Below are positions 33,247 to 58,456 of a stretch of 64,000 nt of DNA, one piece after another; the first letter of the stretch is position 1, and each line of letters starts with the position of its first letter. The notes beneath the pieces were generated by a model that searched no databases, was not told the origin of the DNA, and saw only the letters and a program-made list of their open reading frames with translations. The DNA lies in sequence record NC_101837.1, one strand, 5' to 3'. Both the position numbers and the translations under genes were made by a program. This DNA comes from a phage.

Positions 33247-33275
33247 TTGACACAACGCTTCAGATTTAGTATCAT
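33247..33275 (+). promoter_or_regulatory. sigma70-like promoter followed by leader hairpin
   Basis: TTGACA, 17 bp, TATCAT; hairpin AGAGGG/CCCTCT at about 33285-33303. Confidence 0.55.
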
Positions 33276-33322
33276 TGTTTTCAAAGAGGGTTTGGTTCCC
33301 TCTTCTTTAAAAGGAACACGTT

Positions 33323-39133: not shown

Positions 39134-39260
39134 CACACAATTAGCTGCCCGGCTAAAGTGCTGGAAGCACCTATAACACATCTTTCAACTAAATTTCCTA
39201 CCACCACAATCACTTACCTCCCACACATGACTGTTTGCTTGTTTAGTGAGCAGTCATGCC

Positions 39261-39288
39261 TTGACATTCTTGCCTATCTTGATAAAAT
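39261..39288 (+). promoter_or_regulatory. sigma70-like promoter with no ORF downstream
   Basis: TTGACA, 16 bp, TAAAAT; downstream 250 nt is purine-rich and non-coding. Confidence 0.45.
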
Positions 39289-40663
39289 TAAGTTCTTCTC
39301 TTTTCTTTTACCGAGTAATTCGGGTTTTCTGTTCTCTTCGGTTTGAAGGGGTATGGAGATACACCTGAGTGAACAGGGTGAACAACCGAACCTTTGGCTA
39401 TGGCATTAGCATGGCGAAGCGGACGGGTGACGAAAGAGGGGCCGGAGGACACCAGTCACTGCCATATGATATATGGGTGATAACCTGAAGAGTCTGAATA
39501 AGTGTTTAAGTACCAGTCAGAGGAAAAGGTGAATGGTAGCCGAAGGGGGATGGGGGGTTTCTTGTATCTTTAATTTGTATATTATGTATACACTTGTAAA
39601 CCAATCTCATCTGAATCTGTTTACCACACAAAGCGGATAGAGACAAATATCACCTATTAAACTTGAATTATTTATAGAAAATACCACAACACCAATTAAG
39701 TCTTTGATTTTAAACACAAATCCTACAGATATTCAACCTCCATATTTAACATACTCGTAACATATTCCATACTCTACCTGTCTGATCAATTTACCCAACT
39801 ACATCCCCATATTTTCCCTGTCTGTACTACCCCATCCCCGCCGGGAGTCCCGTCATATCTGGCTTTCCAGCAAATATCACACCCACAAATATCATTGCCT
39901 GAAGAGGGTTTCATCCCATAATACATGCCTTACATGAAGAGCGCTTCATACACCACGTAAATTTTTTAATTGACCTCCCCGCCGCCGGAGAGGTTGGCTT
40001 TTCCCCACACAGACCTGAAGAGTCAGCCAGAAATATCTGAACAGGTCCAGTTCTGCCTTGTCATGAGCCGTAGCGACTGGAGTGCTGCCAGGCGGACGGA
40101 ATGGGAATACTTCTCATTCTTATAATAATTCTCAAATATCGAGGCAGTGAGGCAAATTAATAGGTGAGGCCGTTCACACAGTGGCACAACATTTGCAATC
40201 TATTTTGTGGGGGTGAATGAGAATACCTATCATTGTGAGAACTGTTATCATTACGGGCAATTTAACATAATACCCATTATGCGCACCACTGGCGATCCAT
40301 ACAGGGATTGATAACATGAGTTACAGTTTACGCATATAACAATCATATTTCTTACTATTTGTGTGGGATATAGTTAGCAGCCGATAGATTAGATATTGAC
40401 CTGTGGACTTCCAACCGTCTAGACGTCTAAACGCCCACACAACAAGGATTATACATACATTACTGAATGTAAACAGGGCCGCAAAAATGCTACCATACCA
40501 GTTTGTAAATTTTTCATGCAGCACTTGACAAAGAGAGGAAAAACTTGTCTGACATGCTGGGCATACTTCACACCTTAAACATACTCAACACTGGATACAA
40601 TAACAATTGTTACTATTGCATGCCTCACTGTTCACGTATAGACTATTTGCTCAAAAATGATAA

Positions 40664-40955
40664 GCCATGCCATTCGTTTGCATGATAACAATAACGATCA
40701 ACAACAATAAAGACTGAAATGATAACGTTGTTGATTTGACTGACTAACAATTAACAGGCTAATAATCTATGACATAATATAAAAGCAGGGCAACTATTAG
40801 CAGATCTATAGTTGCCTTGCTTGTTATGTCATGATTAACTAAATACAAGGCAACTATGATCTGATTAATAGTTTGCAGACAAACTATCACGGGGGTGATG
40901 GTTACTGCTTTTATATTATGTCGCGACTCCGTCGCGCCATGCCATTCGTTTGCAT
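40664..40955. repeat. composite repeat: 20-bp direct repeats flanking 18-bp inverted repeats and iteron-like motifs
   Basis: GCCATGCCATTCGTTTGCAT at about 40664 and 40936; GACATAATATAAAAGCAG (40771) and its reverse complement (40905); AAGGCAACTAT-like motif in both orientations between them. Confidence 0.5.
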
Positions 40956-41616
40956 AGTTGCCTTATTGTTACAGATAAAATAATTGTATTGTTAATTATT
41001 TCTTATCTTTCTATTAGTCATCTAATGATTCCAGTTAGTATAGTAACGTACAGTAAACATTAGACGACTAAAGATTTCTCTGATTATGATAACTTGCCGT
41101 GACAATTTCAGACTGTTTACGAAAAATGTTGACACCTGAGCTGATTTATGTTATGCAATTTAAACGAATAATTATTTTATGCAGGTATTGACTATTCTGT
41201 TATCCTATGGTCGGAATAAATACTTAGCAGGCTATAGAATGGTGAGCGTACGTAAATTCTGAGATCTGTCGGCTATAGTTATACTCGATTTTTCACGTAG
41301 AACACGCTTTTTGGTTTGTGTAAGTGTATGACTTATAAAGATTTTTAGTTGTTGACAAGATATTGAAGATGTGCATCAGGTTAAATTTTGTGCAATAGCT
41401 GCATTACGTGCAATTTTGGAAGGAAAACGGGTAAAAATAGCACCGCTACCACACAATGAAAGGTTATGCAATAGTTATTTTACATGTATATTTGTACAGT
41501 GTGTGGGATTGATGGCTCGTCAATTATTCCACTTGCCAGGTAGGGCCGTTTATGGTAGGGAGGAAGAGCAGACAAAAAGAAAGGGACCTAAGCCCCTTGA
41601 TAATTCAGTTAAAAAA

Positions 41617-42036
41617 TTATAATGATTCGTATATTTCAAAAATCCGATTTGCCAGGTCGTTACGGTACCGGAATTTTTCATCACGTTTGATCATAAGATC
41701 TTTATAGCCGTACTCTTTAAGCACTTCATTAACTTTATGGCGGCACACCTTCATATTATCCTGAGCGTCACCAATAAACCTGTTGCTATGGTGCATGGCT
41801 TTAATTTCTTCTTCCAGGACCAGGGCAACTATGCGGACCGGATCAAGCTGATAGGCGGTAACATCCATGCGGCATTGTAAACGGCTTTTTACGTCTGCCA
41901 CCGGATATACTGCAACCTCTTCCCCGTCAACATTGACAATAATTAGTTTACCATCGATTTCGAATCCTTTCGCCGCCGGACCGTGACAAAAAGCGTTATC
42001 AAAGCTATATGCCGGATTATTAGATTTAATGTTCAT
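41617..42036 (-). CDS. hypothetical protein (139 aa)
   Basis: Last gene of leftward block. Confidence 0.45.
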   Translation of the reverse strand: MNIKSNNPAYSFDNAFCHGPAAKGFEIDGKLIIVNVDGEEVAVYPVADVKSRLQCRMDVTAYQLDPVRIVALVLEEEIKAMHHSNRFIGDAQDNMKVCRHKVNEVLKEYGYKDLMIKRDEKFRYRNDLANRIFEIYESL

Positions 42037-42179
42037 GGTGTTTTTACCTCTTAGTTAATTTTCTTACAACTTCCCTTCAAAAAAGAATATAGCAAAACTG
42101 CCGATCCCTGTCAACCAGGGATAGCATAATTTTTATGTGATCAAGGGGCTTTAAGCCCCTGACCGTGCACCTTGTTGTA

Positions 42180-42443
42180 TTATTTGTTGCTCATCCAGTT
42201 TTCCCAAGCTGCCTGATAATCTGCCTCACTACGGCGGATCTCTTCTTGCTCTTCAAGTCGGATCTCTTCTTCCAGGTACCCCAAGATGTCAGCCTTTTTG
42301 GTCTGGCGTAGCATCCAGTCATCTTTTTTGCGAGTGAAGATCTTATAAGCTTTCTCGCAAACCTCTTTTTTGCTACCTTTCTGGACTTCAAGAACACGAT
42401 AAGCCATATATTGAACTAATTTGAGCTGATCAAGGCGTTTCAT
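42180..42443 (-). CDS. hypothetical charged protein
   Basis: Tiled ORF. Confidence 0.45.
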   Translation of the reverse strand: MKRLDQLKLVQYMAYRVLEVQKGSKKEVCEKAYKIFTRKKDDWMLRQTKKADILGYLEEEIRLEEQEEIRRSEADYQAAWENWMSNK

Positions 42444-42505
42444 GATGTTTTTCCTCTTTATGTGGTTTTTGTTTAGTGGGCCTTTTGGCCCGTGTCATTA
42501 TCTTA

Positions 42506-42778
42506 TTACTTACGGCGGCAGAATTCAAGCGTTTTTAATTGATAATCTTCCTCAGCCTGGAGTACAACCGCCTCGATCATTTCGTTGGCATTGTTGAAGC
42601 CATATCCTTTAGCGAATTCATCCGCACCACCTTCGTGATCATGTTCTGCGTTCATCGCTTCCACGAAATGGAATTCAAGATTATTGAGATAAGGGCTTGA
42701 TGTTCCGTCCTCTTTTTCGATGAGATCCCAAATAGCATTGAAACGTGATTCAACTTCTTGGTTAATCCAGCTTAACAT
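42506..42778 (-). CDS. hypothetical acidic protein
   Basis: Internal ATG with GGAAGAGAGG RBS in track ORF 42506..42862. Confidence 0.45.
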   Translation of the reverse strand: MLSWINQEVESRFNAIWDLIEKEDGTSSPYLNNLEFHFVEAMNAEHDHEGGADEFAKGYGFNNANEMIEAVVLQAEEDYQLKTLEFCRRK

Positions 42779-42991
42779 GGCGTTTTCCTCTCTTCCGGTT
42801 GTTGTGTGGGCGCTTTTGCCCCCTTCGAGATAAATGCTACCCCACCACCTGGCAGATGTCAACGGTTTTTATAGTTTTTATATAGCAGGCACACCCGGTG
42901 ATTGTCTCCCCCCCGTCGCCAGGTGCCTGCCGTGAAACAAGTATAACAAAAAACAGGACCATTGCAAGCCCTGTTTTGTAGTTTATAAGGA

Positions 42992-43183
42992 TTATATTTT
43001 TTCGCCTATGTAGTCCGGTCGGTTTTTCTCTGTCATGCGCTTTAGCAATTCTTGCATGTTACTTATGGCTTGTAGTGTATCCCCTTCCAGGCTTGAATCG
43101 ACATAATCAGGATCGTCTATGACCTTTCTATGATTATGATAACGCAGTACCGCCAATACCTTTCTAACTTGTTCGATATTCAT
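42992..43183 (-). CDS. hypothetical protein (63 aa)
   Basis: Tiled ORF. Confidence 0.4.
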   Translation of the reverse strand: MNIEQVRKVLAVLRYHNHRKVIDDPDYVDSSLEGDTLQAISNMQELLKRMTEKNRPDYIGEKI

Positions 43184-43195
43184 TTTTACCGCTCT

Positions 43196-43330
43196 TTAAA
43201 ACAAGGTGCCAACCGTTTCCAATAGATCACTGACTACCAGGACAATACCGATCAGCACATACCTAACCATAAGGAGAAAGAGCGCCAGCGATCCCGCCAC
43301 AATCCCCAAGGTGATGATTATCTTTCTCAT
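43196..43330 (-). CDS. small hydrophobic peptide (44 aa)
   Basis: ATG 2 nt after upstream stop; MRKIIITLGIVAGSLALFLLMV... Confidence 0.3.
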   Translation of the reverse strand: MRKIIITLGIVAGSLALFLLMVRYVLIGIVLVVSDLLETVGTLF

Positions 43331-43332
43331 GG

Positions 43333-43617
43333 TTAACGGTTTACGTAAGTTTTCCCGTTTACGGTGATGGGCAGATCCTCCAGGTCTGGATCTTCCTTAA
43401 GGTCGCGAGCAAGTTCACCGCACCGGACACCCTCGAATCCGTAGTACTCTGTCGTGCCGTCCTTAAAAGTTTTAGCGGCAAGGCATAAGCGATAAGTAAC
43501 CCCGATTCGATTGACGGCATGAATATCCGTTAGATTAACCTCTTTTGCCAGCTCTTTAGCCATTACAGGCGCATTAAGTCCAACAACCAGGGCAACCACT
43601 GCGATCATCTTTTTCAT
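43333..43617 (-). CDS. secreted/periplasmic small protein
   Basis: Signal peptide MKKMIAVVALVVGLNAPVMA. Confidence 0.5.
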   Translation of the reverse strand: MKKMIAVVALVVGLNAPVMAKELAKEVNLTDIHAVNRIGVTYRLCLAAKTFKDGTTEYYGFEGVRCGELARDLKEDPDLEDLPITVNGKTYVNR

Positions 43618-43708
43618 TGTGTCTATCCTCTTTCTGCTACGTTTAAGGCGGCGGTAACCGCCTGTTTATGCTTTGTTGGTTAATTTTCGGGTATCGGTAT
43701 AAATTAAA

Positions 43709-43924
43709 CTATGCTGTACGCTCAACTATAACAACGGTTTGAGGGATCTCACCTTCCACCACTATCAAGGCCTTTTTCTGCGTGATGGATATCTTTACCC
43801 GTTGCAGCGTGGCGGTGAAGTCTTTCATTTCGTCACGTGGTGTTTTAGTGCAATACCAGATCTCAGGCTTGCCGATCTGTAAGTTGCGTAAAAATTCCGT
43901 TTTGCCTGTTTTGTTAGTGATCAT
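43709..43924 (-). CDS. hypothetical protein
   Basis: Tiled ORF. Confidence 0.4.
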   Translation of the reverse strand: MITNKTGKTEFLRNLQIGKPEIWYCTKTPRDEMKDFTATLQRVKISITQKKALIVVEGEIPQTVVIVERTA

Positions 43925-44379
43925 TTGCCAACCTCACCCGATACCGTTGGAAGACAAGATCACATTAGCCATGGTTGCAATCAGGCCAATACCCAGGGCA
44001 ATAACCAGGATCACCGCATCAATTAATTTCTGTTTCATTTTGTTTTCCTCTTCTTGTTCCAGGTGGCGGACCATTCCACCGCCTTATGTATTATGCTTTG
44101 TAAGATGGTTGTTTGTTTTCAAACTATTTTAACGATAATCATCGTACGCTTTATTAACCTGGCGAATATAACATTCAAAAGCCAGATCAATAGATTTATA
44201 TTCACGGATATACTCACCATAGGAAACCACATACATTTCTATAGCTTCCTCATATGCGAGGAGAATAGAATCCAAGCCTACGATCTCAGTCTTTGCAATA
44301 ATAGCCATGATTTTTATCCTCTTTGTGGTTGGTGGGGCTTGCCCCTTTGATTTATATACTACAGTCTTATATGGTCATG

Positions 44380-44613
44380 TCAACTATTTTCAAAAAATTT
44401 TTCTGCTGTGATATTTTTCCCGGTAGGGTTCGCTACTTTCAAAATTTTATCATGCACTGGACGCCCAAAAGAATAAGCGCCGTACACAGTACACCAATAA
44501 TCGCCGTCAGGCTGTACTATTACCGCCGCATAGGGTACGCCTTTTTCGTTTTTGCTGACAAAATAGATCACGTTGCCATTAATAGCCTCGGCGCGTTTAA
44601 TTTGTTCCATCAT
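44380..44613 (-). CDS. hypothetical protein (77 aa)
   Basis: Promoter/hairpin/RBS context. Confidence 0.45.
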   Translation of the reverse strand: MMEQIKRAEAINGNVIYFVSKNEKGVPYAAVIVQPDGDYWCTVYGAYSFGRPVHDKILKVANPTGKNITAEKFFENS

Positions 44614-44668
44614 GATGATTTGCCTCTCTTTATTTTCATAATTGGGGGCCTTTTCGGCCCCGCCAGGT

Positions 44669-44953
44669 TTATTTGTTGATAGCGTGCAGCGGGAAAGGTA
44701 CGCCAGGTTGATAGATAACTTTTACAACCTCATCAGGGCAAAAGAAATTACAAAATTCACCCTGATAAGCCTCATCCTCTTTTAATTCTTCATCAACATA
44801 CTGGAAAAAGTAGTCAATGCTTGGATAATCCTGACCGGGATTATATTCAACCATGGTTAATAACAATTCTTGATCATTCCGTATGATATGCATACCAGCT
44901 TTTAAGTATTTGGCTTCCATTTCTACTACATCGCCAACGGTAACAATAGCCAT
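44669..44953 (-). CDS. hypothetical acidic protein
   Basis: Tiled ORF. Confidence 0.45.
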   Translation of the reverse strand: MAIVTVGDVVEMEAKYLKAGMHIIRNDQELLLTMVEYNPGQDYPSIDYFFQYVDEELKEDEAYQGEFCNFFCPDEVVKVIYQPGVPFPLHAINK

Positions 44954-45160
44954 GGTTTTAACTCCTATCTATCCGGTTAATGATTGGAGGCCTCACCGCC
45001 CCCCCGACACCCTTTATTATCCATATTGTAGGACTTGATGCAAGTACTTCTTTAAAAATTTTTTAAGCGCCTTGGGGGCCGCTGTAACGCCAAAATAATA
45101 AAGGCTATGCAACCGCATAGCCTTTATGTGATTATATCGCTGCAGGCCCTGCCAGGGGCC

Positions 45161-45511
45161 TTATTTTGCATTCTTTCCTATATTGCCGCTACGGTACCAG
45201 CGTTTACGGTGAAAATGGTAATAATCACCATCGGCATTAAACATTAGATGATTTTCAATAACCAGCTTACGAAGGTGGGCCGGATCTTGTTCCATTCTTG
45301 CCAGATTCTGGCGGCTGTTACGTAAGCGGATAAATTCCATATTCAGGCCGTTGATTGCAGCATGGATGTCAAAGTAACCACCTTTGAGACGTTCACGCAT
45401 GGAGTTAAGCTCAACACAATATACAGATTTCTCACAAATCAAGGTATTAGCCAGGGCGCGGACCTGGGCAAGGGGGTTAAGCTCATTAAGGTAATATAGT
45501 TTTACTTTCAT
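45161..45511 (-). CDS. hypothetical protein (116 aa)
   Basis: Tiled ORF. Confidence 0.45.
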   Translation of the reverse strand: MKVKLYYLNELNPLAQVRALANTLICEKSVYCVELNSMRERLKGGYFDIHAAINGLNMEFIRLRNSRQNLARMEQDPAHLRKLVIENHLMFNADGDYYHFHRKRWYRSGNIGKNAK

Positions 45512-45528
45512 AAAATCACCTGCTGAAA

Positions 45529-45849
45529 TTAGTTTGAGAAAACATCGTTCACAATAGCGATCACAATGCCGCCCACCTTGTCACGGTCAACAATGCACAA
45601 ATCACCATAGATCATGTGGTAGTCTGGATGATCTTTCACGGAATAATCAATGAGTGTTTTCTTGTCATCCAGCTTACTAACTTCCATTCTCATAACGATA
45701 TGAGAATCATCAAAGGCATTATTCCGAAAAGTCATAACCTGACCGCCAGGGCACCCGGTGATTTCCACCTCCACGCCGTCTACGATCTGACCATCAAAGA
45801 AATAAAGATTATTAGCCTGGATAAACATGATCATTACTCCTTTTTGCAC
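45529..45849 (-). CDS. hypothetical protein
   Basis: GTG start, AGGAG RBS. Confidence 0.45.
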   Translation of the reverse strand: MQKGVMIMFIQANNLYFFDGQIVDGVEVEITGCPGGQVMTFRNNAFDDSHIVMRMEVSKLDDKKTLIDYSVKDHPDYHMIYGDLCIVDRDKVGGIVIAIVNDVFSN

Positions 45850-45872
45850 TGATTATTTTAACAGGGTTTAAA

Positions 45873-45916
45873 TTTACTTTATTGATGGCCCTGGAGTCAA
45901 GGCCATCTAAAAATAA
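45873..45916 (-). repeat. 44-bp repeated intergenic hairpin element, copy A
   Basis: TTTACTTTATTGATGGCCCTGGAGTCAAGGCCATCTAAAAATAA; GATGGCC/GGCCATC stem; 1 mismatch vs copies B and C. Confidence 0.6.
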
Positions 45917-45919
45917 ATT

Positions 45920-46120
45920 TTACAGGCCTACAATCTCTTTAATTCGTTTTACTGCTGCCTCAGCGCCTTGAGGGTAAAAATTATGGTAACCAATCACGCG
46001 AGTGATACTAATCGCCGTTTGATGATCTTCATAATCACCTTTAAAGATTTCTTGACCGTCAATCAGCACGGCAATTTTTTCTTCTTTTTTGAAGTTAATA
46101 ACGCGGATATTGTTGCTCAT
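45920..46120 (-). CDS. hypothetical protein (66 aa)
   Basis: Tiled ORF ending 4 nt before repeat element. Confidence 0.45.
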   Translation of the reverse strand: MSNNIRVINFKKEEKIAVLIDGQEIFKGDYEDHQTAISITRVIGYHNFYPQGAEAAVKRIKEIVGL

Positions 46121-46400
46121 TTTGTTTCTCCTTTTGGAACTTTGTCTATGCGGTGGGGAGTGTCTCCCCGTTGATTGTTATTATCCATATTCTGGATCGG
46201 ATTGCAACACTCAGGGAGAAAAAAATTTGAAAAGTTAGGCCCCAGGGATCGGGGCCGTTATCAATTACTTACAGCGATAAAATACATCCCTACGCCTAAC
46301 AATATTTCAAGGGCGATGATCTCAAGCCATACCATAACACGGCGCGCCTTATCGGTGCGGGGCTTATCCTTGGGTGTCATCGTCTCCCCCTTTCCTCCTG

Positions 46401-46622
46401 TTAGCAGTGACGTGGTTTGCAATGGCCCCCAGGAGTATTATCACCACGCACATTACAAGAAAAATTATCTCTGTCGTTGTTCGATCCATTGTTATAAAAT
46501 TCCTTAAGATCAGGCCTGAAAATAAAGCTTTCGTTATTGAATCCATCCCGCCAGGCGGCTGGCTTCAAATCTTCACTAAAGGGGTTAATTAACGTGGCAT
46601 TATTTAAACGGCTGGTCCACAT
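46401..46622 (-). CDS. hypothetical Cys-containing protein
   Basis: ATG 46622 with GAGAGGAA RBS; overlaps small hydrophobic ORFs in other frames. Confidence 0.35.
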   Translation of the reverse strand: MWTSRLNNATLINPFSEDLKPAAWRDGFNNESFIFRPDLKEFYNNGSNNDRDNFSCNVRGDNTPGGHCKPRHC

Positions 46623-46971
46623 ATTTTCTATTCCTCTCAAATAGGCGATCCGCCTCAGTTAAACAAATCTCATGGGCGTGATCTCTGGTTTTAGCTTCAT
46701 CGAAAACCTGTTGTGCAAGGCTGCAACGTAGGGAGACTGGAAGATCGCTGTAGTAGGCGTTGACAAATGTTTGAGCGTCGTACAGGTCTGAAAATACTTT
46801 ACCCTTTCTATTATTCCCCTTGTCAACAATTGCAAGGATAACAAGTACAATAGTTGCAACCACCCCCAGGAAAATAGATATAATAAACCATAAAAAAGCG
46901 GATCTACCCATCTTGCCAGCGATCCAGGCGTTGAACAAGGCAACTACTACAGCCAAAATAATAAATTCCAT
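46600..46971 (-). CDS. membrane protein (N-terminal TM helices)
   Basis: ATG 46971 with AAGAGG RBS inside track ORF 46600..47106. Confidence 0.45.
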   Translation of the reverse strand: MEFIILAVVVALFNAWIAGKMGRSAFLWFIISIFLGVVATIVLVILAIVDKGNNRKGKVFSDLYDAQTFVNAYYSDLPVSLRCSLAQQVFDEAKTRDHAHEICLTEADRLFERNRKYVDQPFK

Positions 46972-47035
46972 TCTATGTACCTCTTTTGCAGTTCTGTTTA
47001 ACAATAAGGCGGCAAATATGCCGCCTGTTACCTGA

Positions 47036-47416
47036 TTAAAAATTATCGCCGTAAATCTTTCCGCTTTCTGCCCACACCACCACGCGGGGCATGTTATCCC
47101 ATACATCTTGTTTCAGATTTAACGCGTGCAATTCTTCGGTGGTGCTCATACCGGGCACGGGCTGATTGTATACTGCAAAACGACCGCCTGCATAATCATA
47201 GGCCAGAGTTAAATCACACTGGATCATCTTTTTGATCATGGCGTTAAGCATAGCGTTAGCCGCGTACTGGTCACGTTTTAAAGGCAACTCTTTGATTAGT
47301 TTGCGATAGTTTTCGATATGGTCGCACACTGTTTCACGTGGAAGATCTTTCATATCTTCACGGAATGTAACCAGGTTAAACATAACGGTGTCAATAGCTT
47401 TAGTAGTGTTTTTCAT
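47036..47416 (-). CDS. hypothetical protein (126 aa)
   Basis: Tiled ORF. Confidence 0.45.
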   Translation of the reverse strand: MKNTTKAIDTVMFNLVTFREDMKDLPRETVCDHIENYRKLIKELPLKRDQYAANAMLNAMIKKMIQCDLTLAYDYAGGRFAVYNQPVPGMSTTEELHALNLKQDVWDNMPRVVVWAESGKIYGDNF

Positions 47417-47507
47417 GATGTTTTCCTCTTTGTTTTGTGGGGGGGCAAGTCATCTCGCCCCTTGAGTTTTTAATATAGCAGGTTTTTAGATTATTGCAAC
47501 ACTTTAT

Positions 47508-48131
47508 TTATGAAAAACTCATCTCCCCATATTCATCCACATCAAACCGCCAATCATTGGCTTCAATAAGGCCGATCAGGTTTTCGGTAGTAAACTGTTC
47601 AAGATAGGCCTCCTCCAGGTCTACGTAAACCTTGCGGGATAGCTCCCGTACCGTCTCGGTGATCAGCTCTTCCAGCTCTTCAACTTTGTCCTCTTGCTTG
47701 GTGGTCAGGTCTAGCCAATTAGTATCGATGCACCCTCCTATTGTGTTTTCGTGATGATAATGGCTAAACGGGATACGTTCAACACTGGCTGATAACTCGC
47801 CATCGTGCATTGTGCCGAACAAGTGACGAATTGATCGGAACTTGGTCAGGGCCTTTACTTTACGCAAGAATTTTTCTAAATCCACGTTTTCAGCACTGAT
47901 TGACGCGCCATCGCCTTGACACCAAAAGCCGGACCAACGTATTTCGGTATCTTCAAGGCCGTACTCTGGAAAGACATATTCTTTATAGTGTTCAATTACA
48001 CTTTCTGCAAAAAAATTATCCCCGCTGTGTTCTTCTCTTTCGCGGACCATTTCAATAGCTTTTTCTTTTTGTTCGTCGGTCAGCACGTCGAAAGATAAAT
48101 TGTAACCTGTGGTAATGTTAACGGTGGTCAT
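47508..48131 (-). CDS. hypothetical acidic protein (207 aa)
   Basis: AGGAG RBS; leader hairpin upstream. Confidence 0.5.
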   Translation of the reverse strand: MTTVNITTGYNLSFDVLTDEQKEKAIEMVREREEHSGDNFFAESVIEHYKEYVFPEYGLEDTEIRWSGFWCQGDGASISAENVDLEKFLRKVKALTKFRSIRHLFGTMHDGELSASVERIPFSHYHHENTIGGCIDTNWLDLTTKQEDKVEELEELITETVRELSRKVYVDLEEAYLEQFTTENLIGLIEANDWRFDVDEYGEMSFS

Positions 48132-48188
48132 GATATTTTCTCCTATTTTCTTTGTTAGTGGCGGGAAGTTTTCCCGCCTGTGTGTTTA

Positions 48189-48216
48189 AGTATACTTATC
48201 GAGATTTACTTGTCAA
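48189..48216 (-). promoter_or_regulatory. sigma70-like promoter (leftward)
   Basis: Reverse strand TTGACA, 16 bp, TATACT; followed by hairpin GGCGGGA/TCCCGCC (48160-48178), RBS and ATG 48131. Confidence 0.5.
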
Positions 48217-48466
48217 CACTATTTTTTAAATTATTGTGGCGTAAAATGTTCAAGATCTCTTCAACGTCATCAACACGGCGGCAATTTTTAAACGCTACCA
48301 GTTGCCCCAGTATTTTAATCACTGGACGGCCTTGCCAGTGCCCTTGGAGAAAGCGAGCTTTAACTTTATCGGTGGAACTATCACGCCACCAAATGGCCTT
48401 GTTGTTGCAGTAGTAAAAATTATTCAGGACAACATCAACTTTATCAAAATTTTTTAATTTACGCAT
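48206..48466 (-). CDS. hypothetical protein
   Basis: AAGGAG RBS. Confidence 0.45.
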   Translation of the reverse strand: MRKLKNFDKVDVVLNNFYYCNNKAIWWRDSSTDKVKARFLQGHWQGRPVIKILGQLVAFKNCRRVDDVEEILNILRHNNLKNSVDK

Positions 48467-48498
48467 GGCGTTTACTCCTTTCTCTCTTTGATGTGGTT

Positions 48499-48526
48499 AG
48501 TATAGCTAACCTGTTTAAGATGTCAA
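48499..48526 (-). promoter_or_regulatory. sigma70-like promoter (leftward)
   Basis: Reverse strand TTGACA, 16 bp, TATACT. Confidence 0.5.
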
Positions 48527-48707
48527 GCTTTAAATAAAATCACTGTCAATGATATTTTTAACGCCATAAAACGGCCCTAAGCGATGTTTTCAGGTTAAAG
48601 GGGGGCGATTGCATAGGTGGGGCCTTTTTGGCGCTTACAGGGCCAACCGGGGGCGCTATTCGTAGGATAGAAATAAAAAGCCCCGCACAATGGCGGGGCG
48701 TTGGTTG

Positions 48708-48905
48708 TTATTTGCCTTTGTGGCGGTATCGTTCCGCCTGTCGTTCACGTTCCAAAAGCAGGCCCGGTAATTTGCGATCATAATGATTCCGCCAGATCTT
48801 CCCAAATCTTTTTGGCTTATTCAGTTTATTGTTGCGCTGGCGGCGTTCCGGCAGCTCTTCGGAAGCATGAGATCGCTTTACAATTTTCTCGAAATTAATT
48901 TTCAT
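48708..48905 (-). CDS. small highly basic protein
   Basis: MKINFEKIVKRSHASEELPERRQRNNKLNKPKRFGKIWRNHYDRK...; ATGA overlap. Confidence 0.4.
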   Translation of the reverse strand: MKINFEKIVKRSHASEELPERRQRNNKLNKPKRFGKIWRNHYDRKLPGLLLERERQAERYRHKGK

Positions 48906-49248
48906 ATATTCCCCCCTTGCTAACTTCAATATTGGCCTGAATAGCCCGGATACGGCGCTTTATAACTTCCTGATCTGTGTGGTCGTATCCCCAAAAGTCT
49001 ACAATTTTTGCGCCCCCCGCCTCCAGGCGGTATAGTGTTTCCTGCATTTTGTAAGCCGGGATCGGTCGCGGTGTTACTTGGTCACCTTCTTTATTTTTAT
49101 ACTTTATAATATAATCTTCGTTATCGTTGAATGCCCAAAATGGATATTCTGCAAGGGCGGTACTTCCTCTTTCCTTTTTATCCTGGATCTTATTTACAAT
49201 TAAAGCCGTAGCAATAGCGCCAATAATAAAACTTGCCCCGCTGATCAT
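48895..49248 (-). CDS. membrane-anchored protein
   Basis: N-terminal TM MISGASFIIGAIATALIV. Confidence 0.45.
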   Translation of the reverse strand: MISGASFIIGAIATALIVNKIQDKKERGSTALAEYPFWAFNDNEDYIIKYKNKEGDQVTPRPIPAYKMQETLYRLEAGGAKIVDFWGYDHTDQEVIKRRIRAIQANIEVSKGGIYEN

Positions 49249-49322
49249 GTACTTTCTCCTTTCATGGTGTTAATAAATTATCTTTATAGATGGCCCTGCA
49301 ACCAGGACCACCGAAAAAATAA

Positions 49323-49568
49323 CTATTTCACAATGCCTACAAAACAGATCCCGCCTTCACCTATATAAGCAATATCGGTCACTTTATAACTTGTCAAGAT
49401 CTGCTTATTTAGTTCATTAATAAAATCGGTCATTGCGTTGGTGTAGTTGTCTTCCGTGTCTAAGGCATAATCCCAGGTGTACACCTTTTTACGTCCGAAG
49501 CCTTTTACCATGATACGGGCGCTTTTGGTGTTGGTAGGGGCATAATATTTGGTGATTAGTGCTGCCAT
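49323..49568 (-). CDS. hypothetical protein
   Basis: Tiled ORF. Confidence 0.45.
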   Translation of the reverse strand: MAALITKYYAPTNTKSARIMVKGFGRKKVYTWDYALDTEDNYTNAMTDFINELNKQILTSYKVTDIAYIGEGGICFVGIVK

Positions 49569-49611
49569 GGTTTTAACTCCTATGCATTAGTTCAGTGTTA
49601 ACAGTATAAAG

Positions 49612-49655
49612 TTTACTTTATTGATGGCCCTGGTGTCAAGGCCATCTAAAAATAA
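49612..49655 (-). repeat. 44-bp repeated intergenic hairpin element, copy B
   Basis: TTTACTTTATTGATGGCCCTGGTGTCAAGGCCATCTAAAAATAA, identical to copy C. Confidence 0.6.
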
Positions 49656-49657
49656 GC

Positions 49658-49999
49658 TTACTCGTTTTCTTCCAGCTCCGCAAGCTCTTCTTTTGCTTCT
49701 TCTAACTCTGTCTGTAATTCCTGGTATTCTTCATCGTCCTCAATATCCAGGCTGTCGATGTAGTCGCTAAATCCGCAGCGGTAAGCGATAGGATCTAGCT
49801 CCTTGAGGATACGCGACGGAAGAAAAGAAATGTTTCCGATCATAATTTCGCCGTAGATCTCGTCTAACCATTCATCATAGTTTTCGTCGTACTTGTCCTC
49901 GTCGATTTCAAAGTTATCGATCTTATTCTCAAGGTCTGCGATCTGTTTTTTCAGTTCAGCGATCTGCATAGCTTTTTCTGAGGCGGTCATAGTAGTCAT
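49658..49999 (-). CDS. hypothetical acidic coiled-coil protein
   Basis: AAGGAG RBS; leader hairpin. Confidence 0.45.
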   Translation of the reverse strand: MTTMTASEKAMQIAELKKQIADLENKIDNFEIDEDKYDENYDEWLDEIYGEIMIGNISFLPSRILKELDPIAYRCGFSDYIDSLDIEDDEEYQELQTELEEAKEELAELEENE

Positions 50000-50050
50000 G
50001 GTGTTTTTCTCCTTTTGTGTGTTCTGGGAAGTTTTCCCGTTTATGTGCTT

Positions 50051-50078
50051 ATTATATCGATTTAAGTTAGCTTGTCAA
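50051..50078 (-). promoter_or_regulatory. sigma70-like promoter (leftward)
   Basis: Reverse strand TTGACA, 16 bp, TATAAT; hairpin GGGAA-GTTT-TCCC downstream then RBS. Confidence 0.6.
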
Positions 50079-50198
50079 TTAAAAGTTTAAGAAAAATTTT
50101 GCGACACCGTTGGCGCTACCCATCAACATTTGCGCCAGGATGTACCCAATGATGCAAACGATGATGGTTACCTTTGTGTGCTGGCGTGTAGTGCTCAT
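50079..50198 (-). CDS. small hydrophobic peptide (39 aa)
   Basis: GGAGG RBS 7 nt before ATG; MSTTRQHTKVTIIVCIIGYILAQMLMGSANGVAKFFLNF. Confidence 0.4.
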   Translation of the reverse strand: MSTTRQHTKVTIIVCIIGYILAQMLMGSANGVAKFFLNF

Positions 50199-50232
50199 CT
50201 TTAAGCCTCCTTTTCCGCTCAACTGTGGTTAG

Positions 50233-50276
50233 TTTACTTTATTGATGGCCCTGGTGTCAAGGCCATCTAAAAATAA
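50233..50276 (-). repeat. 44-bp repeated intergenic hairpin element, copy C
   Basis: Identical 44-mer to copy B, 2 nt after stop of upstream gene. Confidence 0.6.
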
Positions 50277-50278
50277 AC

Positions 50279-50674
50279 TCAATAAGTTTTTAGTACTTTC
50301 CCGTCCAATCTGTCAAGCTGGATCTCGATAGCTGCAGAAAACCTATTGTAAACCACATCGCCCAGGGAGTCCAGCCAATCTATGACGTTATATACCTGCT
50401 CTTTATTCTTGCAAGTCCGGATCCGTTTCATTACGTAAGACGGATCAATATTAGCGCTCTCGTTGTTGTGGTCCTGCGCCTGGCCTGCTGCGCTAGTTAT
50501 AGATTTTACAACCACCTGAAAGGGCTTTAAGGTGCCTTTTGCGTTCATCTCACGCGCTTTTGCGGCGCGGTTGTTATATGTTACACAACGGCGGCAAATG
50601 TTGACCAAATGCATATCAATAATTTTTTCATCGTTTGCCAGTTCGTTCATGATGCGGCGTACGTTCTTATTCAT
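50279..50674 (-). CDS. hypothetical protein (131 aa)
   Basis: RBS AAGGAAA; leader hairpin GGCGGGAA/TTCCCGCC. Confidence 0.45.
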   Translation of the reverse strand: MNKNVRRIMNELANDEKIIDMHLVNICRRCVTYNNRAAKAREMNAKGTLKPFQVVVKSITSAAGQAQDHNNESANIDPSYVMKRIRTCKNKEQVYNVIDWLDSLGDVVYNRFSAAIEIQLDRLDGKVLKTY

Positions 50675-50722
50675 GATCTTTTTCCTTTGTGCTGGCGGGA
50701 AACATTCCCGCCTTTTGTGTCT

Positions 50723-50750
50723 AGTTTACTTAAATTTTGCAGCGTGTCAA
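50723..50750 (-). promoter_or_regulatory. sigma70-like promoter (leftward)
   Basis: Reverse strand TTGACA, 16 bp, TAAACT; then hairpin 50694-50712. Confidence 0.5.
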
Positions 50751-51417: not shown

Positions 51418-51498
51418 AAATTTATCCTCTTTACTGGTTAGTGCGGTGTTGTTCACCTTGTAGGGTAATAATACCATGATTAACCTTGTTGTCAACGA

Positions 51499-52050: not shown

Positions 52051-52161
52051 GATTCTAAATGAGAACTCCTCGCATTTAATAAATTTAATTAGCACGCTAA
52101 TTACCCTCCGTAACAATTTACTATAAAATAGTATCCACTAAAATATTCCCATATAGAAATT

Positions 52162-52340
52162 TTAAAAATCCATTTCTGAAAACGAAAAATCGATTTCGTC
52201 CCCAAAAATTTCAGGTTGAGAGCCGGAACGATTTCCAGAAAATCCGATTCAGAAAACGAAAAACAGGTCGAGTACTGAGAAATTTATCGAGAAAAATTTT
52301 CAGAAAATCCAAGCCCTGAAATGAAAAGTAGATCGAGTAC
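52162..52340. repeat. degenerate tandem repeats (about 65-bp period)
   Basis: CAGAAAATCC...AGAAAACGAAAAACAGGTCGAGTAC and CAGAAAATCC...TGAAATGAAAAGTAGATCGAGTAC plus a third degenerate unit; GAAAATCC motif recurs to about 52610. Confidence 0.45.
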
Positions 52341-52652
52341 CTGGAAAGCTGCACCGCAACTTCAAGATAGCGGTTAGATTGTTACCATAGAAGGTCAAGG
52401 GTAAGTGGAGGAAGTTCTAGTAGAGGGAGGTTAGCATGTGTGGGAAATCTATAATGGTGGCCTGGAATATGGTGCAAACGATAGGATGAGTTATTCAGCT
52501 TGTCGCGCCTACTCTGAAAAATCCATTTTAGTTTTCGATCCATTTTCTGATTTTCTAAGAATTTTAAAATATCCAGCCCGGTGAAATATCAAAAGGAGGA
52601 AATCCATTTTAGAAATCCCCCTTATACTTGATATGCCAGGAATTTTCAAGTA

Positions 52653-56781: not shown

Positions 56782-58008
56782 TCAGAAAGGGATCGAGTCA
56801 TCGAACTCATACTGCGCCGGATTCTGATCCATCGGGTCATCTTCCTCGTCATTTACAGGAGGAGCGTCTACAGTGTTTTGCTGTGGAGCTGCTTCCTGTT
56901 TGGCAGCTTGAGGTTCTTGATGGTCAGTGGACCCAGCACCGTTCTTGATCCAATCGTACAACGGCTCAGCCAGATTAGTCAAGACATCTTTCGCTTCTGC
57001 AGTAATTGCCACTGCAAAATCATCAACTTTCGTTTTCTTGTCAATACGGCGACAAGCGTTCAACACCGCATTACCGACACTGGCACCTACTTCATCTTCA
57101 GTTCGGTTGGTGGCTTGAGCATACTCTTTCTTAAGCTCAATGGTGACTACGTGCAGTGTTTTAGCCACGCCCAGTGGGTCGTCTACCTTAAACCCGCGAT
57201 CCAGGATGATCTGCAACGCATTGATGCTATGCCCCGTTTCCACACCGATAGGGTCGTAAGAGGATTTACGCTTGCCACCGGAGCCTTGAGTGCCGTTCTC
57301 TGCCTTAGGGGGATAGGCTTTGAAACCACTGATAATGTTTCCGGTGTCTTTGTCAACAATGGCTGCAACACGACCACCTACCACCAGGTCTTTAAGCTGC
57401 TCATCAGTTACAACCATAGCACCTTCGCCAATCTTGTGGTCATTAACAGTAACCACGTTGCCAACAATCTGAGTCACATCGCCATAGATGCGTAAAACGT
57501 CCTGATTGGCATTCTGCTGAGGTTTCTGCTTCTGGCCTTGTGATTGTGCACCTTGTTGCTGTTTTTGCTGCTGAGTCGCTGCTGGAGCCTCTCCTGCACC
57601 CAGCTTGACCATCTTAGCCAGTGAGCCTTTGTAATAGGTCTTACCGTTATGCTCGTTTGCCTTCAAAGGGATATTTACGATCCATCCCGGCGTTACGGTT
57701 TCCCACTTGTCATCAATTTTAACAGAGACAGAGTCTTGATGACCAGGTTTAAGCAGCTTATCACCCATGCTGATCCAGACTTCTTCACCACCTTGAAGCA
57801 GGTTATCAGAGGAATCCAGTTCAGAAATCAGTAAAGAGATGGTGTGGCTGGACTCAATTTTCTTACCTTGCCACACAGTGGTTTTAATACCTGTTGTAGG
57901 ATCAGCACCTTTGATAGGCTTGATGCTGACGCGTTTAATCATGCCGTGAGCCAGTAAAACAGTTTCACGCGGATTCATCGGGTTAGCGAATTGTTGAATA
58001 ACGCTCAT
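56782..58008 (-). CDS. putative ssDNA-binding protein with SSB-type acidic C-terminal tip
   Basis: Gln-rich linker and terminal EFDDSIPF resembling bacterial SSB DDDIPF tail; next to DNA polymerase block. Confidence 0.45.
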   Translation of the reverse strand: MSVIQQFANPMNPRETVLLAHGMIKRVSIKPIKGADPTTGIKTTVWQGKKIESSHTISLLISELDSSDNLLQGGEEVWISMGDKLLKPGHQDSVSVKIDDKWETVTPGWIVNIPLKANEHNGKTYYKGSLAKMVKLGAGEAPAATQQQKQQQGAQSQGQKQKPQQNANQDVLRIYGDVTQIVGNVVTVNDHKIGEGAMVVTDEQLKDLVVGGRVAAIVDKDTGNIISGFKAYPPKAENGTQGSGGKRKSSYDPIGVETGHSINALQIILDRGFKVDDPLGVAKTLHVVTIELKKEYAQATNRTEDEVGASVGNAVLNACRRIDKKTKVDDFAVAITAEAKDVLTNLAEPLYDWIKNGAGSTDHQEPQAAKQEAAPQQNTVDAPPVNDEEDDPMDQNPAQYEFDDSIPF

Positions 58009-58373: not shown

Positions 58374-58456
58374 TATGGAATCTCCGATTTTATTTGAACA
58401 ACATAGAAGGAGACACTATTTTAGCATCCCCTTCTGCAAATTACAATAGGTATTTG

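Follow-up and report, generated by a model that had tools for sequence, protein, structure and literature searches.

Promoter, GC-hairpin and ribosome-binding-site cassettes recur ahead of small leftward genes in an rV5-like phage

The window, a stretch of 64,000 nucleotides from the phage sequence record NC_101837.1, is that of an rV5-like E. coli phage (Vequintavirus) and shares 98.6% identity with phage WalterGehring. The distal 9 kb of a 39-kb leftward transcription unit are hyperplastic, and nine leftward genes located there, from 42.4 to 50.8 kb (start codons at 50674, 49999, 48131, 47416, 46120, 44953, 44308, 42778, and 42443), each show -35, -10, hairpin, Shine-Dalgarno (SD) and ATG in full, bearing out the recurrence proposed in a preliminary description of this DNA; eight were parsed by script and the ninth, that of the gene starting at 42443, by hand from the sequence. 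Each of these cassettes, which we refer to as class A, has a strong host-type sigma70 promoter (-35 TTGACA or TTGCAA, a spacer of 16-17 bp, then the -10 box) with A/T-rich DNA upstream of it, followed by a start region rich in A, a GC hairpin, an unstructured A/C-rich leader free of U, a strong SD and the ATG. The stems are GC, of 4-8 bp, with their 5' edge 10 nt past the -10, corresponding to about +4/+5. The class A cassettes and one possible further member are as follows:

50672..50750, minus strand: cassette of gene 50279-50674; -35 TTGACA 50745-50750; -10 TAAACT 50723-50728; hairpin GGCGGGAAtgtTTCCCGCC 50694-50712, 10 nt past the -10; leader agcacaaaGGAA; ATG 50672-50674.
49997..50078, minus strand: cassette of gene 49658-49999; TTGACA 50073-50078; TATAAT 50051-50056; hairpin GGGAAaacTTCCC 50026-50038, 12 nt past the -10, the weakest stem (-5.5 kcal/mol).
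48129..48216, minus strand: cassette of gene 47508-48131; TTGACA 48211-48216; TATACT 48189-48194; hairpin GGCGGGAAaacTTCCCGCC 48160-48178, 10 nt past the -10.
47414..47499, minus strand: cassette of gene 47036-47416; TTGCAA 47494-47499; TATATT 47472-47477; hairpin GGGGCGAGatgaCTTGCCCC 47442-47461, 10 nt past the -10.
46118..46207, minus strand: cassette of gene 45920-46120; TTGCAA 46202-46207; GATAAT 46180-46185; hairpin GGGGAGacaCTCCCC 46155-46169, 10 nt past the -10.
44951..45043, minus strand: cassette of gene 44669-44953; TTGCAT 45038-45043; GATAAT 45016-45021; hairpin GGGGGCggtgagGCCTCC 44986-45003, 12 nt past the -10.
44306..44383, minus strand: cassette of gene 44129-44308; TTGACA 44378-44383; TAGTAT 44356-44361; hairpin GGGGcaagCCCC 44334-44345, 10 nt past the -10, equal to the GGGGGCaacaaGCCCC hairpin of relatives minus 4 nt.
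42776..42862, minus strand: cassette of gene 42506-42778; TTGACA 42857-42862; TAGCAT 42834-42839; imperfect hairpin GGGGGCaaaaGCGCCC 42808-42823, 10 nt past the -10.
42441..42528, minus strand: cassette of gene 42180-42443; weak promoter (8/12 consensus positions) of TTGAAT 42523-42528, 17-bp spacer and TAAGAT 42500-42505; hairpin GGGCCaaaaGGCCC 42478-42491, 8 nt past the -10.
51445..51495, minus strand: possible weak tenth member, outside the 42.4-50.8 kb range; TTGACA-16-TATTAT, then 10 nt and a 4-bp hairpin GGTGaacaaCACC, kept in three relatives.

The hairpins named in the preliminary description (48160-48178, 50694-50712, 50026-50038, 42478-42491, 44334-44345, 44645-44661, 46155-46169, and 47442-47461) are all present to within a few bases. 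The promoter it placed ahead of each is found for most, is weak before 42478, and is not recognizable at 44645-44661. The 44951-45043 cassette was not in its list. The same block contains further hairpins and hairpin-bearing elements:

44645..44661, minus strand: intercistronic GC hairpin GGGGCCgaaaaGGCCCC, 10 nt past the stop of gene 44669-44953, with no recognizable promoter.
44063..44084, minus strand: hairpin GGCGGTGGaatggtCCGCCACC in the cassette 44039-44128, the -35 of which is disrupted in the window by a 4-nt insertion.
43646..43663, minus strand: hairpin AGGCGGttacCGCCGCCT ahead of gene 43333-43617, where no promoter is clear.
50231..50279, minus strand: class B repeat of 49 nt, TTTATTTTTAGATGGCCTTGACACCAGGGCCATCAATAAAGTAAACT, with -35 TTGACA within a 10-bp hairpin, then -10 TAAACT.
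49610..49658, minus strand: class B repeat, second copy.
49276..49324, minus strand: class B repeat, degenerate copy, 69% identical, -35 lost.
45871..45919, minus strand: class B repeat, third intact copy.
48680..48699, minus strand: intrinsic terminator GCCCCGCcattgtGCGGGGC then TTTTTATTT, a contrast class, sense U-tail score 4.76.
47007..47026, minus strand: intrinsic terminator AGGCGGCAtattTGCCGCCT then TATTGTT (t184 of rV5), no promoter.
46238..46256, minus strand: terminator GGCCCCgatccctGGGGCC then TAACTTTTC (t181 of rV5), upstream of the promoter at 46207.

Some class of hairpin is found in nearly all intergenic regions between 42 and 51 kb. The class B repeat has no leader hairpin. In the AlexBoehm copy of the 44039-44128 cassette, TTGACA-17-CATAAT is intact and the hairpin follows 6 nt past the -10, and the 43646-43663 hairpin is flipped as one unit in phages FV3 and VB-EcoM-WM (WM).

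The association of promoter and hairpin exceeds chance. On the cassette strand, only 0.77% of positions have the edge of a GC hairpin 8-12 nt further downstream, and 0.16% have one at a distance of exactly 10 nt, whereas from 42.0 to 50.8 kb such an edge is found at 8-9 of ~15 promoter units, seven of them at exactly 10 nt (binomial P ~1e-14 and ~5e-17, respectively, computed on 13 promoter units). Over their first 34 nt, the predicted transcripts fold more stably than dinucleotide shuffles, with z-scores of -2.1 to -5.7, in seven of eight cases. The class A architecture is also confined locally: leader hairpins are mostly absent from the promoter units at 51-61 kb, about six promoter units of the same 9 kb combine a similar leader with no hairpin, and the other ~72 kb of the 98.6%-identical genome yielded only one further case.

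Comparison with relatives shows that structure rather than sequence is conserved in the hairpins. Stem sequences vary among the nine cassettes, with 52% column identity outside the hexamers, and compensatory changes, indels and one inversion leave the pairing intact in ten related phages. Orthologous stems survive a paired insertion (GGCGGGC..GCCCGCC vs. GGGGGC..GCCCCC), replacement of the inner stem (GGCGGTTGAtacTCAGCCGCC) and inversion of the whole hairpin, and one pair of the 44951-45043 hairpin forms an A-U / G.U / G-C series among relatives. The geometry is also common in the phi92-like and phAPEC8-like phages, two other genera of E. coli myoviruses; leader hairpins occur in 16 of 27 promoter units of KKE7M and 13 of 20 of Schickermooser, with a modal offset of 10 nt in both.

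The spacing of 10 nt from the -10, found in seven of the nine window cassettes, supports the earlier proposal of a hairpin located at the 5' end of the mRNA or close to it. The fixed offset places the hairpin ~2-4 nt from the predicted 5' end, the predicted unpaired extension being 2-4 nt, and once 6 nt, if transcription starts canonically 7-8 nt after the -10. Emory et al. reportedly found hairpins located within some 2-4 nt of the 5' end to be effective. The SD has an unpaired probability of 0.63-0.99 in the predicted transcripts. In our best reading the class A cassettes are compact, self-contained units for early-gene expression ahead of small accessory ORFs, and the best explanation of the hairpin, to which we give about an even chance, is that it works as an RNA element at the 5' end of the transcript produced by its own cassette, where it would probably serve as a protective or insulating structure, hindering 5'-end-dependent decay by RppH and then RNase E, and shielding the ribosome site from upstream sequence. 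Position +4/+5 may be the nearest place for a GC-rich stem outside the region melted for initiation, and in read-through transcripts the hairpin could in addition block 3' exonucleases. In the DNA, the conserved promoter, hairpin and RBS ends would allow whole gene modules to be exchanged, as has been put forward for the promoter-early stem-loops (PeSLs) of T4-type phages; the traces of such exchange between phages are described below.

A role in mRNA stabilization is plausible, as base pairing at the 5' terminus guards against RNase E and RppH (PMC3997798; PMC8833179). These enzymes need at least 2 unpaired 5' nucleotides and prefer at least 3 (PMC8833179), so the predicted 2-4 unpaired nucleotides suffice for both to engage, and protection by the hairpin may be partial or weak. 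RNase E is stimulated by the T4 protein Srd (PMC4980113), and a close relative encodes a Srd-like protein. The three hairpins of the same kind without a working promoter (43646, 44063, and 44645) indicate that a 5'-terminal position is not required for retention. In the literature there are no mapped transcript 5' or 3' ends for any Vequintavirus.

It is feasible, but unlikely, that the hairpins matter chiefly as DNA, with promoter, palindrome and RBS blocks forming recombination substrates that shuffle modules (the PeSL model); the structure in the RNA would then be incidental. The region is hyperplastic, and whole-gene indels in it have their breakpoints in intergenic cassettes: gene 41617-42036 and its promoter are present or absent, with the junction within two similar hairpins (41581-41598 and 42144-42160); genes 45161-45511 and 42992-43183 are cleanly absent from FV3 and WM; alternative genes at 43.9-44.4 kb each have their own promoter-hairpin cassette; and the 44039 cassette is joined to different genes in different phages, with a breakpoint at the SD/ATG. 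Identical cassette types are common to Vequintavirus and Stephanstirmvirinae, and RBS and cassette repeats were detected. This modular, exchangeable, PeSL-like nature of the cassettes had been overlooked in the preliminary description. However, recombination needs identity, and the cassettes have diverged while keeping their pairing and 10-nt offset, which argues for selection on structure and position. The DNA-level model is compatible with an RNA-level role and does not replace it. Somewhat less probable still are sense-strand attenuators or terminators, as proposed for PeSL stem-loops, which would damp upstream read-through as well as the cassette's own promoter output, tandem strong promoters then not being additive. 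Such a role would suit the near ubiquity of intergenic hairpins at 42-51 kb, the persistence of three hairpins without a promoter, the annotation of some such leader hairpins as same-strand terminators in the EdH4 and Schickermooser records, and the RB49 PeSL211/210 stem-loop, which lowered expression of a downstream lacZ reporter like a strong terminator (PMC2839356). Yet there is almost no U in the 12-15 nt past class A stems, the sense tail scores of which are 0-0.33 (mean 0.09 vs. 0.71 at random positions, P ~3e-4), compared with 1.5-4.8 for real terminators in the block. Lacking a sense-strand U-tract, the class A hairpin is not a sense terminator by its sequence, though attenuation of the RB49 kind is conceivable; moreover, a terminator just 5 nt from the start of the RNA would cancel the adjoining near-consensus promoter, and the fixed offset from the -10 would have no rationale.

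The earlier suggestion of antisense termination finds no support as a selected function. We consider it improbable that the hairpins are intrinsic terminators of rightward transcription, with the T-rich complement of the promoter/start region as U-tract, that would shield the leftward block from a convergent rightward unit. The cassettes do occupy the part of the block closest to the convergence zone, a consensus scan rates 46151, 48160, 50694, 43646, and 50025 as terminator-like on the plus strand, and class A tail scores on that strand average 1.98 vs. 1.0 at random (P ~0.003). Hairpin-less promoters of the same block, however, are equally T-rich at the same offset (0.27-2.69, mean ~1.6), and in 21 sister cassettes of the same geometry in phi92-like and phAPEC8-like phages the tail is about UACGUGAUAC, scoring 1.29 on average (vs. 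1.0 at random) and at least 2.0 in only one. A-rich DNA in the promoter and the initial transcribed region thus accounts for the T-richness, as a by-product; good rightward promoters were not found inside the block, nor a mirror-image arrangement in the rightward block, and antisense termination is at most incidental. Recognition by a single protein, either a dimeric DNA-binding regulator with the palindromes as operators or an RNA-binding protein (an N/boxB-type antiterminator or a translational repressor), seems very improbable. The position at +5 to +23 is a classic operator location and a GGCGGGAA/TTCCCGCC core is common to several hairpins, but stems and loops (AAAA, CAAG, GAAAA, ACA, AUGA, AAC, UGU) are diverse, only pairing is conserved, and one hairpin is inverted in relatives rather than lost.

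Among known systems, class A cassettes are best read as related in kind to the PeSLs of T4-type phages (Arbiol et al., 2010, PMC2839356; Comeau et al., 2014, PMC4122927), with the stem-loop shifted into the transcribed leader. PeSLs likewise are small cassettes between genes that combine a near-consensus sigma70 early promoter and a GC-rich stem-loop with A/T-rich DNA upstream and an SD and ATG at the 3' end; they too stand ahead of small ORFans, cluster in hyperplastic regions and are tied to gene indels and replacements between close relatives. Their layouts are matched directly by the class B repeat (-35 in the hairpin) and by hairpins over the -10 at 58405-58435 and 59686-59712. The PeSL stem-loop, however, precedes the promoter, sits between -35 and -10 or covers the -10; it is thus missing from the transcript of its own cassette and has been interpreted as terminating upstream transcription, whereas that of class A lies 10 nt downstream of the -10, in its own 5' leader, with no U-tract. 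PeSLs belong to T4-like phages and class A to Vequintavirinae and Stephanstirmvirinae. The ompA and papA 5' stem-loops (Emory, Bouvet and Belasco, 1992; Bricker and Belasco, 1999; cited in PMC3997798) are similarly simple hairpins near the 5' end, followed by an accessible ribosome site and of unimportant sequence if paired. Those belong to single cellular genes, whereas the class A element is repeated many times within a mobile cassette, and its overhang, predicted at 2-4 nt, falls at the permissive limit of RppH/RNase E (PMC8833179). Promoter-coupled terminators (Fletcher et al., 2026 preprint, doi 10.64898/2026.08.19.745784) share the tight spacing of stem-loop and promoter in short tandem intergenic regions and the dual use of one stretch of DNA, and the element at 42086-42121 (a hairpin surrounding the -35 and a T-tract in the spacer before TATATT) fits their design; their stem-loop, however, lies upstream of the start (3' end ~10 bp before it) with a T-tract, and that of class A downstream without one. 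With a putative function for its hairpin, class A is a regular variant of the promoter/stem-loop cassettes already known from T4-like phages.

An 8.3-kb stretch of the window matches Escherichia phage WalterGehring (Bas51) at 98.6% identity and some 90 further Vequintavirus (rV5-like) genomes at 92-98%, and the gene layout used here is the WalterGehring annotation mapped onto the window. A minus-strand transcription unit of 39 kb starts at a divergent promoter beside an Srd-like gene. It takes in rIIA/B and then helicase, primase and DNA polymerase, and it closes with about 55 small ORFs that have no known function; the cassette block (window 42.4-50.8 kb) is its final 9 kb. The block adjoins a gene-free gap of about 2.4 kb (window ~39150-41616) that separates the convergent rightward and leftward units, has the lowest GC of the window (0.386) and matches the "non-coding" box of the rV5 map. 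The gap yielded neither a tRNA nor an Rfam family, and searches of the whole window with Rfam (gathering thresholds) and ARAGORN returned no matches. Elsewhere, at 52152-52347 and 52355-52652, there are three imperfect 57-nt direct repeats (61-72% identical, A-rich, ...GAAAATCC...GAAAACGAAAA...). Two very small annotated ORFs, which start with TTG and GTG, overlap these repeats, and 298 nt free of genes come next.

All intergenic regions were printed in mRNA sense and folded, with separate scans for perfect GC-rich hairpins and for promoters. Intergenic GC hairpins of at least 5 bp numbered 14 within 42.1-50.7 kb, and 12 lay outside annotated leftward genes in the other 55 kb of the window. 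Nine leftward genes of the block are preceded by a class A cassette, which consists, in order, of an A/T-rich stretch (e.g., aatttaaaaaatagtg and aataaaaatca), a -35 element (variants TTGACA, TTGCAA, TTGCAT, and TTGAAT), a 16-17 bp spacer, a -10 element that matches the consensus at 4-6 of its six positions, a short A-rich spacer, a GC stem of 4-8 bp with a loop of 3-6 nt (free energy -5.5 to -14.6 kcal/mol), an A/C-rich leader, and a Shine-Dalgarno (SD) sequence with ATG. The ORFs that follow encode 59-207 aa and have no known function. Table S4 of the rV5 paper includes five of these promoters; the hairpins that follow them are not listed there.

The 5' edge of the stem lies exactly 10 nt downstream of the -10 in seven of the nine cassettes and 8 or 12 nt downstream of it in the others. 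A comparable hairpin edge is found 8-12 nt downstream of 0.77% of positions on this strand, and exactly 10 nt downstream of 0.16%, so the 8-9 leader hairpins among about 15 promoter units in the block are far beyond chance (binomial P ~1e-14 for 8-12 nt and ~5e-17 for exactly 10 nt, calculated for 13 units). The recurrent order of promoter, hairpin, RBS and ATG noted in the preliminary description is therefore real, with nine full cassettes and a spacing far above the chance rate. The same promoter-then-hairpin order also occurs outside the block:

Window 33247-33304, plus strand: TTGACA-17-TATCAT, 8 nt, AAGAGGGtttggttCCCTCTT; in the rightward unit
WalterGehring 28371-28440, plus strand: TTGACT-17-TAAGAT, 12 nt, GGGGAGGcctCCTCCCC; before an N6-adenine methyltransferase gene

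With the start of transcription predicted as the nearest purine 7-9 nt after the -10, the unpaired 5' overhang before the class A hairpin would be 2-4 nt (6 nt once). Over their first 34 nt, seven of eight predicted transcripts fold more stably than dinucleotide shuffles (z -2.1 to -5.7), and the hairpin is followed by 8-23 nt of A/C-rich leader and then by an SD predicted to be 63-99% unpaired in the ensemble. A literature search for Vequintavirus transcriptomics or mapped start sites found none, and it is on promoter geometry that the earlier placement of the hairpin at or near the 5' end of the mRNA stands. On the sense strand, the 15 nt 3' of the class A stem are nearly U-free. The d'Aubenton-Carafa d-score is uncalibrated with modern energies (accepted terminators score negative), and its tail term alone was used, comparatively: the eight class A hairpins scored gave sense tails of 0-0.33, with a mean of 0.09 vs. 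0.71 at random positions (P ~3e-4), and the real terminators of the block gave 1.5-4.8. The ordinary terminators, class T, are as follows, three of them being listed in the rV5 paper:

48680, 47007, 46238, 45098, and 42950: class T terminators with U-tracts

On the sense strand, class A hairpins thus lack the U-tract of an intrinsic (Rho-independent) terminator. Based on the geometry relative to the predicted starts and the near-absence of U after the stem, we conclude that they belong to the 5' leader of their own cassette and are not canonical sense terminators. In phage EdH4, 3587-3601 and 9934-9952 are annotated as same-strand "putative transcriptional terminators" (ARNold); both are leader hairpins of class A, with a promoter upstream and no sense U-tract, and public records that name such leader hairpins terminators are flagged here as annotation errors. 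The hairpin at 7884-7900 of phage Schickermooser, also annotated as a terminator, is on the same strand and is followed by a U-run.

It had also been suggested that several of the hairpins could terminate antisense transcription. The opposite strand after the class A stems is T/G-rich, a simple scan flagged five of them as terminator-like, and their antisense tail scores averaged 1.98 vs. 1.0 at random positions (P ~0.003). However, at the same offset, ten promoters of the block that have no hairpin gave 0.27-2.69 (mean ~1.6), and because these score alike, the T-richness is explained as the complement of the A-rich -10 and start region, which would be present anyway. Among 21 sister cassettes from phi92-like and phAPEC8-like phages, whose geometry is the same, the antisense tail averaged 1.29 and reached at least 2.0 in one; their spacer is GTATCACGTA-like, the complement of which is not a U-tract. 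Good antisense tails were found in three of the eight scored hairpins (50694, 44334, and 48160), and antisense termination may occur at two or three of these sites. It is not what the class A architecture is built for, and with tails no better than those of hairpin-less promoters, and absent from the sister cassettes, antisense termination as a selected function is not upheld.

Column identity among the nine class A cassettes is 52%, and the copies have in common only the hexamers, partial stems and the RBS, although one pair is 76% identical over 38 nt. The stems themselves differ (GGCGGGAA, GGGGCGAG, GGGGAG, GGGCC, and others). Nevertheless, orthologous hairpins were all kept in ten related genomes despite changes. 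In VB-EcoM-WM, a base pair has been inserted on both arms of a stem (GGCGGGC...GCCCGCC versus GGGGGC...GCCCCC); in MiataMamis, the inner half of the 50694 stem has been replaced (GGCGGTTGA-tac-TCAGCCGCC); one pair of the 44986 hairpin forms an A-U, G.U and G-C series across relatives; and the loops vary freely. In addition, the imperfect palindrome AGGCGGTTACCGCCGCCT (window 43646-43663) is present as its exact reverse complement in FV3 and VB-EcoM-WM, which is an in-place inversion of the hairpin, as from template switching in quasi-palindromes. Conservation of pairing was judged from orthologue comparisons, as MAFFT put stems of unequal length in different registers. What is conserved in the class A hairpins is structure, not sequence, as would be expected of an RNA hairpin or of a DNA palindrome whose symmetry alone matters. 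The compensatory changes, indels, inversion and A-U/G.U/G-C series exclude a sequence-specific protein site; an operator, an N/boxB-type site or any other site for a single protein is rejected on the same variable loops and stems and the one inverted hairpin.

Whole-gene indels and replacements between relatives have their breakpoints in or beside cassettes, and in behaviour the region resembles the hyperplastic regions of T4-type phages. The gene at 41617-42036 and its promoter are missing from EdH4, FV3 and VB-EcoM-WM, with the junction inside a hairpin. Two similar GC hairpins, 41581-41598 (GGGGCTTAGGTCCC) and 42144-42160 (AGGGGCTTTAAGCCCCT), flank this module, and the pattern is what recombination between them, by excision or insertion, would leave. 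FV3 and VB-EcoM-WM cleanly lack genes 45161-45511 and 42992-43183, and at 43.9-44.4 kb the small genes vary from phage to phage, every one coming with a promoter-hairpin cassette of its own.

Three hairpins (43646, 44063, and 44645) look like class A and have no recognisable promoter in the window. A common phage-specific promoter motif (ACAAAGCATAA) was sought upstream of the promoter-less hairpins; it was present at two paralogous sites only, was not enriched, and was dropped in favor of a decayed sigma70 promoter on comparison with phage AlexBoehm. The AlexBoehm copy (3513-3599) of the cassette at window 44039-44128 has an intact TTGACA-17-CATAAT and reads TTGACAAC; the window has TTGAAAACAAAC, in which a 4-nt insertion destroys the -35. 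One "promoter-less" hairpin is therefore that of a decayed cassette. In the window, this cassette precedes an ORF of 34 aa; AlexBoehm, inoa, isim and rV5_ev168 have another ORF behind it, of 81 aa, and the switch falls at the SD/ATG.

Other hairpins of the window are linked to promoters in a different manner, as in the class B repeat of 49 nt (three good copies and one decayed) and in three single elements:

45871-45919: class B repeat
49276-49324: class B repeat
49610-49658: class B repeat
50231-50279: class B repeat
42086-42121: hairpin over the -35; ATCCCTGgttgaCAGGGAT encloses the -35, followed by cggcagTTTTgc and then the -10 TATATT; promoter for gene 41617-42036
58405-58435: hairpin with the -10 TAAAAT in its loop; promoter of gene 58008-58373
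59686-59712: hairpin with the -10 TATAAT in its loop; promoter of gene 59401-59694

The class B copies are 92-98% identical over the 49 nt. The loop and 3' arm of a 10-bp hairpin (GATGGCCTTGACACCAGGGCCATC) hold their -35 (TTGACA). Complementary A/U-rich flanking arms lengthen this hairpin into a helix of about 21 bp that contains an internal loop; no U-tract was found on either strand. The repeat has three copies per genome in 120 phage records and a single copy in phage KKE7M, joined there to a class A hairpin. Class B could represent an element like the promoter-early stem-loop (PeSL) of T4-type phages (Arbiol et al. 2010, PMC2839356; Comeau et al. 2014, PMC4122927) or, alternatively, an RNase III-sized helix in read-through RNA.

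Leader hairpins are found in 16 of the 27 promoter units in a 12-kb stretch of KKE7M (Justusliebigvirus) and in 13 of the 20 in a 10-kb stretch of Schickermooser (Phapecoctavirus), and in both phages the modal distance from -10 to hairpin is 10 nt. Their consensus is far more uniform (TTGACA-N16-TAnnnT-GTATCACGTA-GGGCGGCAATGGTGCCGCTC-ACAAC...AGAG...ATG), the Stephanstirmvirinae copies being much more alike than the class A copies of the window, and some of the KKE7M and Schickermooser cassettes are also present in Vequintavirus genomes. An IMG/VR search seeded with a 207-aa neighbor protein returned two close relatives and six unrelated high-GC phages, the latter uninformative. A pattern scan of IMG/VR, which is biased in that the pattern presupposed the design, recovered phi92-like and phAPEC8-like phages and, unexpectedly, Mycobacterium phage Thonko; the same biased scan found single similar cassettes in the contigs L025/L088, L050, L053, and L058/L064/L067. 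Thonko (record 61835-69471) has four near-identical cassettes within 3.5 kb, before small genes, each composed of TTGACAACnnCGACnnnGTCGGGTAACTT (TTGACA-N17-TAACTT), 10-11 nt, GGCGGGAAnnnCCCGCC, GGGAAG and ATG. Promoter, gap, hairpin and SD follow the same design here, and the host system is unrelated.

The geometry, conserved pairing, absent U-tract and open RBS are shown here; from these and from established work we infer, at about even odds, that class A would represent early-gene expression cassettes whose hairpin acts as RNA at the 5' end of its own message. Emory et al. reportedly found hairpins within about 2-4 nt of the 5' end to be effective. Base pairing at the 5' terminus hinders RppH, as well as RNase E entry that depends on the 5' end (PMC3997798; PMC8833179), and the leader hairpin would thus impede RppH and hence the access of RNase E from the 5' end. 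The fixed offset of 10 nt may exist because the GC stem must stay clear of the melting region, as a stem closer than about +4 would enter the DNA melted at initiation. A protein of a close relative matches the PHROG families "Srd anti-sigma factor" and "decoy of host sigma70", and gp11 was regarded by the rV5 authors as probably homologous to Srd. In T4, Srd stimulates the action of RNase E on host mRNA (PMC4980113), and a phage that boosts RNase E would gain from U-poor leaders with a hairpin cap.

Several observations weaken this reading of the hairpin as a 5' RNA element: an overhang of 2-4 nt is at the limit where RppH and RNase E still work (PMC8833179), hairpins are retained at three sites without a live promoter, and several promoters have no hairpin. 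In read-through transcripts the stems could be barriers to 3' exonucleases or weak attenuators; attenuation has been reported for a PeSL stem-loop of RB49 (PMC2839356). An RNase III site is rejected for class A, the stems being merely 4-8 bp. A broader reading, that the promoter, 10-nt gap, GC hairpin and U-free leader are a convergent device, in wide use among phages, for marking or armouring early phage mRNAs, is drawn from the recurrence of the design in three genera of E. coli myoviruses and, through a targeted pattern scan, in Thonko, and we consider it improbable. Such a device would either protect the message from RNase E activity boosted by the phage's own Srd-like protein or provide a structural mark by which a phage factor tells phage messages from those of the host. 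The regularity of the cassettes is striking and general within these phages, and the function of the leader hairpin is likely to be conventional.

If class A hairpins do act in expression cassettes of this kind, this would account for the way in which rV5-, phi92- and phAPEC8-like phages, groups in wide use in typing and therapy, express dozens of tiny accessory genes as units that are independent and portable. It would also carry the PeSL idea of mobile regulatory cassettes past the T4-like phages, to a stem-loop that is placed differently and hence follows a different logic. The cassettes are, moreover, natural short parts (promoter, 5' hairpin and RBS) with graded stems for synthetic biology.

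The class A layout is previously undescribed in this phage lineage. In function, which is a matter of inference here, its closest likeness would be to 5' stabilisers of the ompA/papA type. The promoter-coupled terminator of a 2026 preprint has a stem over or near the -35, a T-tract in the spacer and then the -10, a layout that is seen in the element at 42086-42121 and not in class A. Among described systems PeSLs are the closest to class A, which has each of their components (an A/T-rich stretch, a near-consensus sigma70 promoter, a GC stem-loop and SD/ATG) and likewise precedes small ORFans in a hyperplastic region and is tied to indels and gene shuffling. However, the PeSL stem-loop lies upstream of, within or over the promoter and is read as a terminator of upstream transcription, outside its own transcript, whereas that of class A lies 8-12 nt downstream of the -10 (mode 10), inside the leader. 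PeSL copies share sequence over about 100 bp, enough for homologous recombination; the figures here are 52% column identity for class A and 92-98% over 49 nt for class B. The PeSL placement of the stem-loop is found only in the class B repeats and in the hairpins 58405 and 59686, the latter two, which lie farther upstream in the leftward block, having the classical layout. Because its stem-loop is placed differently, class A is a variation on the PeSL design and not a PeSL in the strict sense.
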